This document shows positions 2,535-59,415 of a stretch of 64,000 nucleotides of DNA, one piece after another. Below the pieces are notes generated by a model that was not told the origin of the DNA, did not search any database, and was given only the letters and a program-made list of their open reading frames with translations. This DNA is from a virus. Numbering within the stretch: position 1 is the first letter of the stretch; each line of letters begins with the position of its first letter. The stretch is taken from the IMG/VR virus record IMGVR_UViG_3300035670_000030, positions 79,731-143,730 of that record; one strand, 5' to 3'. A program made the translations under genes and the position numbers.

Positions 2535-3590
2535 TTATCCTTCTAAAATATCTGTGAAAAATATATTATTTCCACTAATAATATATTGGAATTTATTTCC
2601 AAAAATATTATATGGATTTGGTTTATATATTTCAATATTTAAGCCAGTATAGATTGTAGATTGATTTAATGGTATAATACCAGATCCTGAAAATTGACTA
2701 ATACCAGTATTAAAAGATATTGGAACGCCAGAATAATTTTGTGGGTTTCTCGGATCTTTAAACCCTGTTAATATTGTATAATTTCCACTAAAACTATCTT
2801 CCCAAAGAATACCTGATATATTTTTAAATAACTCTATAGGCTCTACTTGTTTAGTATAAAAACCAGAATTTTCAACAGTAATATTAAAAACGCCTGAAAA
2901 AGAACCAATCCAAGAATTAGCTCTTGGTCTATAACTTTCTCCGCCAGTAAAATATCTATTGTGAATTTTAATTGACTCTAAATTACTAGAGTCTCTATAA
3001 ATTCTAAGATCATTGCCATTTTCTCCTTCTCGTAAATAAGAAAATAAAAATAGTTTATTGTCTATTTGATAACCAGTAACCCCAACAATTGTTTGTAATA
3101 AAGTATATCCTTGATCATTAAATCCTCCTGTTGCTCCAGAATTTAAATTATTTAATAAATTTAAAGGAGAACTAAATTGACCTGGATTATCTGCTCCAGT
3201 ATTATAATAAAATAAGAAATCAGCTATACTTATATAATCTCCATTTTGAAGTCCAGACCCCGTATTATCTATAAATTCTATGATATTTTGAGCTGATTTA
3301 AAACCTGTAACATAATTAAGATAAACTCTTGTTTGTTGACCTGGATGAGTTAATTGTAAGTTTTGCCAAGTATATGAACCACTTCCATCTCCAATATAAC
3401 CATTTAAAACACCAGTTGTAAAATAAATAACTGGCTGTAATCCAGTTGGATTTAAAATAGTTCCAGTAAAAATTTGATTATCAAAAGAAGTAATATAACC
3501 ATGCCCACGATATGAATTGATTGTTGTATTTATACGGTTATCAATGGTATGATAAAAATCTACTTTTTTTATCCTAATAATCTCAGACAT
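2535..3590 (-). CDS. TG/SG-rich tail protein
   Basis: 351 aa with many TG/SG dipeptides, like neighbouring tail proteins. Confidence 0.55.
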   Translation of the reverse strand: MSEIIRIKKVDFYHTIDNRINTTINSYRGHGYITSFDNQIFTGTILNPTGLQPVIYFTTGVLNGYIGDGSGSYTWQNLQLTHPGQQTRVYLNYVTGFKSAQNIIEFIDNTGSGLQNGDYISIADFLFYYNTGADNPGQFSSPLNLLNNLNSGATGGFNDQGYTLLQTIVGVTGYQIDNKLFLFSYLREGENGNDLRIYRDSSNLESIKIHNRYFTGGESYRPRANSWIGSFSGVFNITVENSGFYTKQVEPIELFKNISGILWEDSFSGNYTILTGFKDPRNPQNYSGVPISFNTGISQFSGSGIIPLNQSTIYTGLNIEIYKPNPYNIFGNKFQYIISGNNIFFTDILEG

Positions 3591-57363: not shown

Positions 57364-57391
57364 TTGCTTTTCTGCCGTCCTGTGGTAGAGT
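57364..57391 (+). promoter_or_regulatory. First early sigma70-type promoter (TTGCTT-16-TAGAGT, extended -10), leaderless
   Basis: ATG lies 6 nt after the -10; upstream A-tracts. Confidence 0.75.
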
Positions 57392-58488: not shown

Positions 58489-58707
58489 ATGAACATCACC
58501 AACGACCACTTCAACACGCAACCGCAATCCGACGAATATGCCAGCGAGCACGAGGAAGTGCGCGGCACGTTTGCGGCTGAACCAGCCGCAGAGCAGGAGC
58601 CGCAACCCTACGATGGGTGGGAAGGCTGCTGGCCTGGGGATGGATCGGGCATGGACGACCTCGCGGACATGCACGCGAACGAAGCCAATGACTACTACGA
58701 CGAGTAG
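58489..58707 (+). CDS. Small, very acidic early protein
   Basis: Start re-called from promoter TTGCAA(58454)-17-TATCCT; 72 aa with 19 D/E. Confidence 0.75.
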   Translation: MNITNDHFNTQPQSDEYASEHEEVRGTFAAEPAAEQEPQPYDGWEGCWPGDGSGMDDLADMHANEANDYYDE

Positions 58708-58833
58708 TGTCATAGTCGTGTCATAATTTTCCGAACGTTTCGATGCGTGTCTCCATGGCGCGGGAATAAACGAAGAGGAAACGAAGCGCCCGTGTTCAAA
58801 CGGGCGTTTCAATTTGCTGAAATTCAATGTTGC

Positions 58834-58910
58834 GTAAACCATTGATATTCAACCACTTACATGGGCGCGCGGGGCGTGCGCGCGTAAGTCCTTGATATTC
58901 AACGACTTAA
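58834..58910. repeat. 77-bp element, copy 2 (core inverted)
   Basis: Same 27/23/27 geometry; core reads GGGGCG instead of CGCCCC. Confidence 0.92.
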
Positions 58911-59034
58911 GTAGTGCCTTACGAACCCGCATGAATACTGGCTTCGCGGGTGTCAAGCTTTTTTTTGCAAAAAAATTTTCATCGAATCGAAAAAAACTGG
59001 TTGCTTTCTGCGCGTTCTGTGGTATTCTGTATAC

Positions 59035-59134
59035 ATTGATAGGACAAGAGGTTTTCCACCGAGAAGGGTTGATCGCCGGAAAAAAGGTGGAAACGTAAGC
59101 GTCCGACCGTAATGGCAAGGCCTACTCCTATCAA
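59035..59134 (+). ncRNA. Candidate structured ~100-nt ncRNA
   Basis: Promoter TTGCTT(59001)-16-TATTCT has no ATG at +1; terminal stem TTGATAGGA/TCCTATCAA; internal stem TTTCCACC/GGTGGAAA. Confidence 0.6.
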
Positions 59135-59178
59135 AACTTTTTCTTGACTCTCACCCTTAACCTGCTAAAATAATCACT

Positions 59179-59370
59179 ATGAATAGAAACTACAGAAGCT
59201 GGCGCGACGAAGAACGCGAAGCAACCCTCGACTACCCGCTGGCCGTGGATCGTGAAGATCCCGCCTACCAGCACAACCCGAACGCCTACGAGCGTGAACT
59301 TGAGCGGTTGAACCGCTTGGAGGGTTGGGAGCGTAGCCGTGGCGGTTACTACCGCCGCAGCTACCGCTGA
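59179..59370 (+). CDS. Small charged early protein
   Basis: 63 aa; promoter TTGACT(59144)-16-TAAAAT. Confidence 0.75.
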   Translation: MNRNYRSWRDEEREATLDYPLAVDREDPAYQHNPNAYERELERLNRLEGWERSRGGYYRRSYR

Positions 59371-59415
59371 AAAAAGTCGCTTGACTTTCAGCCCCATTTC
59401 AACGATACTTTTAAC

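Follow-up and report, generated by a model that had tools for sequence, protein, structure and literature searches.

The window, as we call the whole 64-kb stretch of DNA that was analysed, is the final 64 kb of a 143.7-kb uncultivated virus record whose completeness was put at 82% by CheckV. Positions 1-57000 have a G+C content of ~30%; the structural genes found there, among them that of a 2000-aa tape-measure protein, lie on the minus strand. Between 57000 and 64000, short genes occupy the plus strand and the G+C content is 40-51%, as compared with ~30% in the rest of the genome. Many genes of this early region are leaderless, each with a sigma-70-type promoter and an ATG 6-7 nt past the -10 box. 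A G+C-rich hairpin with a T-rich tail, terminator-like in appearance, lies at 58787-58806, just before a palindromic 77-bp element (58834-58910) that precedes the promoter considered below. Blast matches showed such 77-bp elements to be repeated throughout the early regions of all relatives.

A scripted promoter listing revealed a recurring promoter class in the window, consisting of TTGCNN, a 16-nt spacer and TGnTATTCT, with an ATG 6 nt further on; transcripts from this class are leaderless mRNAs. Promoters of the class begin at 57364, 58064, 60107, 61260, 61666 and 63057, and their ATG lies 4-6 nt past the -10 hexamer as positioned by the script. A second class in the window has TTGAC-type -35 boxes. 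The promoter at 59001 is a perfect member of the first class except that ATT replaces the ATG (Table 1). A previous sequence-only reading of this DNA had described it as a promoter without an ATG near +1, and the listing agrees, since all of the listed sister promoters have one. The 59001 promoter was not listed by a generic sigma-70 scan, because TTGCTT matches TTGACA at only three of six positions. Its reality rests on the recurrence of the class in the window and on the presence of the same promoter in relatives; an identical site of this class was found in L002-L006 (loci and phage records are cited by L and G numbers, respectively).

Table 1. Positions of the type A RNA, its helices and loops, and the flanking transcription signals in the window.
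Feature	Position	Strand	Details and basis
Early cassette-leading promoter	59001..59028	+	-35 TTGCTT 59001-59006, 16-nt spacer, extended -10 TGgTATTCT 59020-59028
ATT at the position of the sisters' leaderless ATG; likely transcription start region	59035..59037	+	Promoter listing, relatives
Structured RNA, type A, first to last base of P1	59036..59134	+	Covariance model R1
P1 outer helix, 5' strand TTGATAGGA	59036..59044	+	Pairs with 59126-59134 TCCTATCAA
P1 inner helix AGG	59049..59051	+	Pairs with 59121-59123 CCT; outermost pair AU, CG, UA
P2, 5' strand TTTCCACC	59053..59060	+	Pairs with 59086-59093 GGTGGAAA
L2, purine-rich 25-nt loop, nearly invariant across type A	59061..59085	+	Alignment columns
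C-GNAA-G, GNRA-type tetraloop and closing pair	59094..59099	+	Alignments
P3 hairpin, pentaloop GUAAU	59105..59116	+	G59105-C59116, C59107-G59115, C59108-G59114
T-run 3 nt past P1; possible transcript end	59138..59142	+	Sequence; termination inferred
Next promoter	59144..59171	+	TTGACT, 16-nt spacer, TAAAAT with TG; promoter listing, sigma-70 scan

Pattern scans of viral, metagenome and genome collections yielded 17 distinct homologues of the RNA between these two promoters, designated type A, in uncultivated phage and metagenome contigs; the neighbouring 63-aa ORF, used as a query, led to five related phages. Three groups are distinguished below: group 1, the phage group of the window; group 2, comprising L009, L012, L019, L023, L024, L027 and L032; and group 3, comprising L008/L015 and L030, from a G+C-rich phage with a gpA-type terminase. 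The window copy scored 104.6 bits against covariance model R1 (E about 1e-22) and is the single type A copy of the 143.7-kb record. Each of six phage records (G000-G005) likewise holds one copy. In five of the six the RNA lies 0.4-7 kb from a contig end, so the early region may lie next to the end of the genome or to a repeat at which assemblies break.

The fold is a three-way junction. The sequence-only reading had proposed a perfect 9-bp closing stem and an 8-bp internal stem, and both were recovered exactly as it had placed them, as the outer part of P1 and as P2. P1 was found in all 17 homologues, in unrelated sequences and with the register of its outer part varying by lineage. Both sides had changed in five of the eight P2 pairs, with 98.4% of alignment cells paired. 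In P3 one pair is CG or UA and the next CG or GC, and pairing was complete (100% of cells). Some 45 positions are invariant, including nearly all of L2, C-GNAA-G except for its N, and the GUAAY loop of P3. The sole change seen in L2 of type A was a G to A at one position in L037; an internal mini-hairpin of the loop (59067-59069 with 59075-59077) displays GAUC. Only the N of C-GNAA-G varies in the family (U, C or A), and the second type of the RNA described below, type B, has CGCAAG or CGUAAG. With its three-way junction, covarying stems, L2, C-GNAA-G and GUAAY, the window copy qualifies as type A.

Covariation was counted over 16 distinct sequences on a structure that we specified after alignment and RNAalifold. 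The specified partners paired in 98.7% of cells, as compared with 29-50% when partners were slid by 1-3 columns, and 8 of 19 pairs had changed on both sides. None of 500 shuffles reached the observed covariation score. Comparison with homologues, suggested as a check in the sequence-only reading, thus found P1, P2 and P3 to keep their pairing through compensatory changes. The single-sequence fold differed only modestly from shuffles (z = -2.0), which is suggestive only. The alignment contained 22 G-U cells, including one invariant U-G pair. Because these would be A-C mismatches on the opposite strand, the alignment supports the plus strand as the functional one.

The same homologues bear on coding potential. 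The sequence-only reading had counted a 20-codon TTG-start frame (59037-59099) as the only ORF in the element; that frame is present, and a further one of 25 codons runs from the ATT at 59035. Translation of the 17 homologues in three frames revealed no conserved start or stop codon in any frame. The TTG start is confined to the closest relatives, its stop shifts or vanishes, and the codons that vary are exactly the stem positions, altered in pairs. Conservation of the peptide rather than of the base pairing would have refuted the RNA proposal; the opposite was found. A small protein gene was rejected, as start, stop and frame were all unconserved across the homologues, and the 20-codon ORF, judged by its lack of any conserved start or stop codon, is not a gene. 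That either frame encodes a micro-protein is scarcely credible, even though the ATT stands exactly where sister promoters carry their ATG and two of the three changes between the window and L005 in the 20-codon frame are synonymous. One frame is interrupted by an invariant internal stop, the frame extends to 127 codons in L008, and in L005-type copies it would lie 95 nt into the transcript without a ribosome-binding site.

The ends of the RNA are inferred, as no expression data are available. In each of the seven group-2 homologues a -10 box lies 6-9 nt 5' of the first base of P1. In group 1 every homologue shows 5-8 T at a distance of 0-3 nt from P1; in group 2 no T-run follows P1. A-runs, not T-runs, precede the window's other promoters with TTGAC-type -35 boxes. 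A transcript ending before the next -35 box, as the sequence-only reading had it, is plausible given the T-run after P1, although it has not been shown. Termination there is uncertain, since the T-run comes after a long-range helix and not a compact hairpin, and a terminator scan of the window did not call it.

We consider it very probable that 59036-59134 is a real structured RNA gene. The earlier proposal of a promoter-driven structured small RNA, not a protein gene, is supported by the covariation, the unconserved peptide and the -10 boxes.

Comparison with relatives indicated how the RNA came to its present position. Five relatives have this promoter too, with identity extending through the -10 box and six further bases, and the ATG of the 63-aa ORF then comes at once. 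As the promoter leads directly into this ORF in the relatives, ~144 bp, made up of the RNA, the T-run and a new promoter, have been inserted between the two in the window. The TTGACT promoter now drives the displaced ORF at 59179-59370. A copy 92% identical to the element lies in another cassette of L005, the shared segment running from P1 to the next -35 box. The RNA is therefore mobile. It is also accessory in this phage group, because complete relatives lack type A and their promoter drives the 63-aa ORF directly. G006 (complete, 170 kb) has neither type A nor type B, and type B is the only one present in G009 (178 kb, with terminal repeats). Both types occur in G004 and L025, and type A alone in the phage of the window.

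The surroundings of type A vary. In group 1 the element lies among leaderless early cassettes and is followed by the T-run and a new promoter; upstream is either the promoter directly, as in the window, or a 95-nt leader, as in L005 and L037. The leader of these L005-type phages (L005:9636-9730, L037:6408-6485) begins with a two-codon leaderless mini-ORF, ATG ATT TAA (ATG AGA TAA in L037), and continues with a hairpin whose stem covaries between L005 and L037. The downstream gene is not fixed. It is the 63-aa ORF in the window and a 64-aa zinc-ribbon ORF in L005, L011, L014 and L025; in L037 the zinc-ribbon ORF lies ~570 nt downstream and a different ORF comes first. The zinc-ribbon protein was rejected as a partner of the RNA in group 1, being absent from the record of this phage and from groups 2 and 3. 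Elsewhere, the element lies directly upstream of tRNA-Thr, where a tRNA cluster begins (L010), or has tRNA-Leu ~100 nt upstream (L023). In group 3 it lies ~100 nt upstream of genes for a 75-aa ubiquitin-like protein, a Prok-E2_D protein and a ThiF-like E1. A B-like copy stands directly 5' of type A in L030, and this tandem starts 4 nt past the stop codon of a clamp-like gene. The local G+C content of the RNA is 0.47-0.64, and the contigs that carry it differ widely in composition and gene content.

Two further features were seen beside type A copies. About 750 nt without a credible ORF lie directly downstream of the RNA in L009 (L009:9617-10375) and also in L012; its parts are distributed in a mosaic fashion across the contigs of group 2, and it has a short motif in common with the G009 island described below. 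In L008 the region immediately upstream of the RNA holds the 3' end of a transposase-like ORF of IS type (2780-2959, minus strand), and L030 has the sliding-clamp-like gene in its place.

A second type of the RNA was found through the ubiquitin-like/E2/E1 operon. A search of viral contigs with a single E2 protein gave no match; a large protein search gave homologues, which led to five more operon loci, one of them (L046) cut off at its 5' end. At those with upstream DNA the best R1 match was intergenic, before the first ubiquitin-like gene (E 0.1-0.3, filters off). These copies, type B, have the P1-P2-GNRA-P3 plan of type A and a completely different L2. Model R2, built from the operon-locus copies, detected stand-alone type B in the group-1 phages G004, G009 and L025; with E values up to 0.1 admitted, it found none in either the window or G000. 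Cross-matches between the types were weak (R1 on type B, E 0.05-0.3; R2 on type A in L008, E 0.07). In a model-fitted alignment, 16 of 19 pairs showed double changes and 90.5% of cells were paired, as compared with 25-47% with slid partners; fitting type B to a model favours the structure by construction. Within L2, type B copies have UUCUAGAA or UCUAGA, and UUGCAA occupies this position in the B-like copy of L030. Each of these palindromes was matched by 2-10% of shuffles; the GAUC of type A is not unusual. Differing palindromes at one site would fit loop-loop homodimers, an idea not yet applicable to the window copy.

In G009, type B lies within a ~960-nt ORF-free stretch that ends with a tRNA. 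Such an 'RNA island', of up to nearly 1 kb, was observed at L006:10220-11180 (G009), L037:11400-12000 and L025:3900-4490. Several conserved GNRA-loop hairpins flank type B on both sides, a tRNA gene stands at the end, and the island matched no Rfam family. Other small RNAs, or a single large one, may be encoded there.

The operon loci (L045:1208-5441, L044, L047, L048, L049, L015:3152-5779 and L030:1577-3021) have genes for ubiquitin-like protein(s), Prok-E2_D, an 81-aa protein, a ThiF-like E1 and several further proteins without a Pfam match. There are two ubiquitin-like proteins in L044-L049 and one in L008/L015 and L030; they terminate in ...SKAA, not GG. At every operon locus with upstream DNA (L008/L015, L030, L044, L045 and L047-L049) a type A or B RNA comes first, 100-250 nt upstream of the first gene. 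In this lineage no promoter can be discerned from the RNA to the first gene, and downstream of the RNA come a C-rich, G-poor tract and conserved hairpins. Operator-like inverted repeats overlap the promoter just upstream of type B in L048 (2110-2150) and L044 (2262-2290), which suggests that this early promoter may be under repressor control. The first operon gene of L049 is separated from the type B RNA by a tRNA. At L049:4737-4873 (minus strand) the Rfam tRNA model aligns end to end over 137 nt, and this is therefore a tRNA gene bearing a ~60-nt insertion; ARAGORN did not call it. No E2 or E1 genes were found in the RNA-carrying phages G000-G004, so the link to the operon is confined to one lineage. 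A recurrent class of downstream gene, expected of a riboswitch together with an aptamer coupled to an expression platform, is present in that lineage only and in neither group 1 nor group 2, where the next genes have their own promoters. No link between ubiquitin-like operons and non-coding RNA was found in the literature.

The family was found only in phage and metagenome contigs. An invariant 20-mer of the RNA had only two matches in 185,579 bacterial and archaeal species genomes, both protein-coding; besides the homologues, the pattern scans with this 20-mer picked up nine coding sequences in all, which the covariance model rejects. The Rfam search named as a check in the sequence-only reading was run and assigned the element to no family: Rfam 15 (4227 models) gave no element match at gathering threshold in the whole window, nor did any appear in 58600-59400 or at eight homologue loci when E values up to 10 were admitted. 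Blastn of GenBank phages was negative with a 721-nt query and, at E up to 10, with the 83-nt core, and no match to the core motif was found in the literature. ARAGORN found no tRNA or tmRNA in the window, and the tRNAs at homologue loci lie beside the element, not on it; this identity was rejected. The family appears undescribed, as judged from Rfam 15, the literature and cultured GenBank phages, with the candidates of PMC10690425 unchecked; it may sit among the 10,006 unnamed candidates of that study.

Several specific identities and partners were examined and rejected. Pairing of L2 with the 3' end of 16S rRNA, as in a sponge, reached -10.7 kcal/mol, which 23% of shuffles of the same composition equalled, and no anti-Shine-Dalgarno pairing with that end was shown by type B; such a sponge would have favoured leaderless phage mRNAs. 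By eye, the GGA motifs expected of a CsrA-type sponge are unconserved in the window copy and type B, and the L2 hairpin does not fit the consensus positions of an anticodon loop or T-loop. An antisense target of L2 in the window was not apparent, the only matches being the element itself and one site with three mismatches, as expected by chance. A type III antitoxin-like RNA, which would have tandem direct repeats of about 36 nt beside an endoribonuclease toxin gene, was ruled out on the basis of the single copy and the lack of internal repeats, a toxin gene not being part of the test. A resemblance of the AGAAG and GUAAU loops to the L11-binding region of 23S rRNA was likewise discarded, since no ribosomal RNA model match supports it.

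The main rival to a free RNA is a leader acting in cis, either as a put-like nascent-RNA antiterminator that modifies polymerase or as a riboswitch-like sensor of the downstream genes. At the operon loci, the fixed place of the RNA before the first gene, the lack of an evident promoter after it, the C-rich tract with its hairpins and, in L044 and L048, the inverted-repeat operator over the promoter just upstream all speak for such a leader, and this arrangement suits it as well as it suits a free RNA. The start of the RNA at the transcription start in seven homologues and its invariant unpaired bases, typical of polymerase- or ligand-binding RNAs, point the same way. Against this, the next gene in the window's group is leaderless and has its own promoter, and read-through transcripts would present it with an internal AUG lacking a Shine-Dalgarno sequence. 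The downstream gene varies, the element is dispensable in complete relatives, a tRNA gene separates it from the operon in L049, a tandem sits in mid-operon right after a stop codon in L030, and one genome may carry two types at separate places. We regard a leader as unlikely, without dismissing it, and as a poor fit for this window in particular, because of the leaderless promoters of the neighbouring genes, the variable downstream genes, the mid-operon tandem of L030 and the tRNA of L049.

Two other readings assign the element a different kind of activity. A self-cleaving or self-processing ribozyme that trims tRNA-bearing transcripts or operon mRNAs would account for the positions next to tRNA genes in L010, L023, L049 and L006 and inside a polycistronic unit in L030, and the size, three-way junction and many invariant unpaired bases of the RNA resemble those of small ribozymes. 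It is nevertheless improbable: no Rfam 15 ribozyme matched at E up to 10 in the window or the eight homologue loci, a conserved cleavage-site context was not seen, and in many copies the 5' end is the transcription start, which leaves nothing there to remove. An element acting as DNA, whether a recombination or insertion site, an origin-related hairpin or a protein-binding operator, is more improbable still. The module has moved between cassettes, the L2 of type B and of the B-like copy contains palindromic hexamers or octamers, and the early region is full of palindromic 77-bp elements. On the other side, G-U pairs are tolerated only on the plus strand, the orientation is always that of transcription, the promoter is positioned for a start at P1, and GNRA-type loops are meaningful only in RNA; neither flanking direct repeats nor a recombinase gene accompany the module. 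A stable RNA gene is the simplest and most likely reading across all of the contexts, its mechanism being inferred.

Comparison with known systems places this RNA close to several and within none. The put RNA of phage HK022 is a cis-acting antiterminator; RNAs of this kind act in cis only, on their own polymerase, and suppress downstream terminators. Like put, the present RNA has a conserved fold just past a phage early promoter, with conserved unpaired bases and no need for a dedicated protein gene alongside, no homology to put in sequence or structure having been seen. It is promoter-proximal in many copies, in mid-operon in L030 and absent from complete relatives. Unlike put, it is dispensable in relatives, can directly precede a T-run and a fresh promoter, and occurs in tandem, beside tRNAs and as two or three types per genome. 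The pRNA of phi29-like phages is a packaging RNA of roughly 120 nt made from an early promoter; it is essential, lacks strong sequence conservation and is found only in small protein-primed podoviruses. Both are phage RNAs from early promoters with paired 5' and 3' ends, a three-way junction and loops suited to RNA-RNA contacts, whereas the RNA described here is accessory, heads ubiquitin-like operons, is strongly conserved in sequence and belongs to large tailed phages, as indicated by the tape-measure gene of the window and the gpA-type terminase of G005.

Three-way-junction riboswitches such as the purine and c-di-GMP-I classes share the size (~80-100 nt), the GNRA-type loops and the combination of freely covarying stems with fixed junction and loop bases. 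The present RNA differs from them in matching no riboswitch model, in being its own transcription unit and, in this phage group, in lacking both an expression platform and a constant gene downstream. Phage-encoded RNAs directed against host defences include a pseudo-ToxI antitoxin RNA, repeat-mimic anti-CRISPR RNAs and tRNAs that replace cleaved host tRNAs. The present RNA is similarly accessory, putatively early-expressed, non-coding and located among hypervariable early genes and tRNA genes, but it has no tandem short repeats, has no likeness to a CRISPR repeat, is not a tRNA, and has not been linked to any defence system. To our knowledge, structured phage RNAs with the conservation of riboswitches are rare, and almost none has a known job. 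GOLLD and ROOL are large orphan phage-associated RNAs in Rfam, whose self-assembly is the subject of bioRxiv 10.1101/2024.12.08.627333. They and the present RNA are phage-carried, often beside tRNA genes, of unknown function and possibly self-associating through loops. GOLLD and ROOL are several-fold longer, this RNA has no Rfam match at any threshold, and a palindromic loop is statistically supported for type B only, not for the type A of the window. The RNA appears to be the first described member of a phage-only family; orphan structured phage RNAs are already known as a kind.

With little more than even confidence, we favour as the overall explanation a stand-alone small RNA, expressed from an early promoter, acting in trans and carried as an accessory cassette. 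Host sigma-70 RNA polymerase would transcribe an RNA of ~100 nt (59036-59134) from the early promoter at 59001-59028, starting at or beside the first base of P1 and probably ending at the T-run after it. The transcript folds into the three-way junction, with P1 closing, P2 and L2 forming the long arm, and the GNRA-type mini-hairpin and P3 with its GUAAU loop completing it. The cassette would have arrived as the ~144-bp insertion between a cassette promoter and its leaderless ORF. Where the RNA stands alone it would have its own promoter; beside tRNAs or within operons it would probably be cut from longer transcripts. The RNA itself would be the product, made in bulk at the start of infection and acting in trans; that it works as a free trans-acting product is inferred, and is at best slightly favoured. 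The comparisons above establish the fold, the family, the contexts and the accessory, mobile character of the RNA; its ends, its action in trans and its partner are matters of inference. Its invariant loops and junction may bind a partner conserved in hosts, be it a host protein, an RNA machine or a small molecule. A conserved partner is inferred because single-stranded bases are invariant across phages of very different composition. Types A and B have entirely different L2 sequences, so the constancy of this loop among type A copies may mean a partner specific to the type and not universal.

Such an RNA might be a decoy, a sponge or an aptamer. The sequence-only reading had offered a decoy, an antitoxin mimic or an anti-defence RNA as possible examples, and no repeat structure like that of an antitoxin was seen. 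A decoy or sponge specifically is only a tentative possibility. Its accessory, exchangeable and multi-type behaviour in hypervariable early regions is, by inference, typical of host takeover or counter-defence. A narrower version, in which an aptamer-like decoy or sponge, produced as infection begins, neutralizes a conserved host factor or immune signal with L2 as its specificity loop, is doubtful. Were it correct, L2 would have diversified into A, B and B-like forms, stacked in tandem or held at separate sites; the RNA might work as a loop-loop homodimer; and its place before the ubiquitin-like operon would mark a counter-defence module of RNA plus protein.

The family occurs in several unrelated uncultivated phage lineages, in interchangeable types, with ties to tRNA clusters as well as to an operon for ubiquitin-like conjugation carried by phages. 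Its clear fold, and a size small enough for synthesis and probing, make it a tractable entry to the roles of non-coding RNA in the first minutes of infection. It also indicates that hypervariable early cassette regions exchange RNA genes besides small protein genes.
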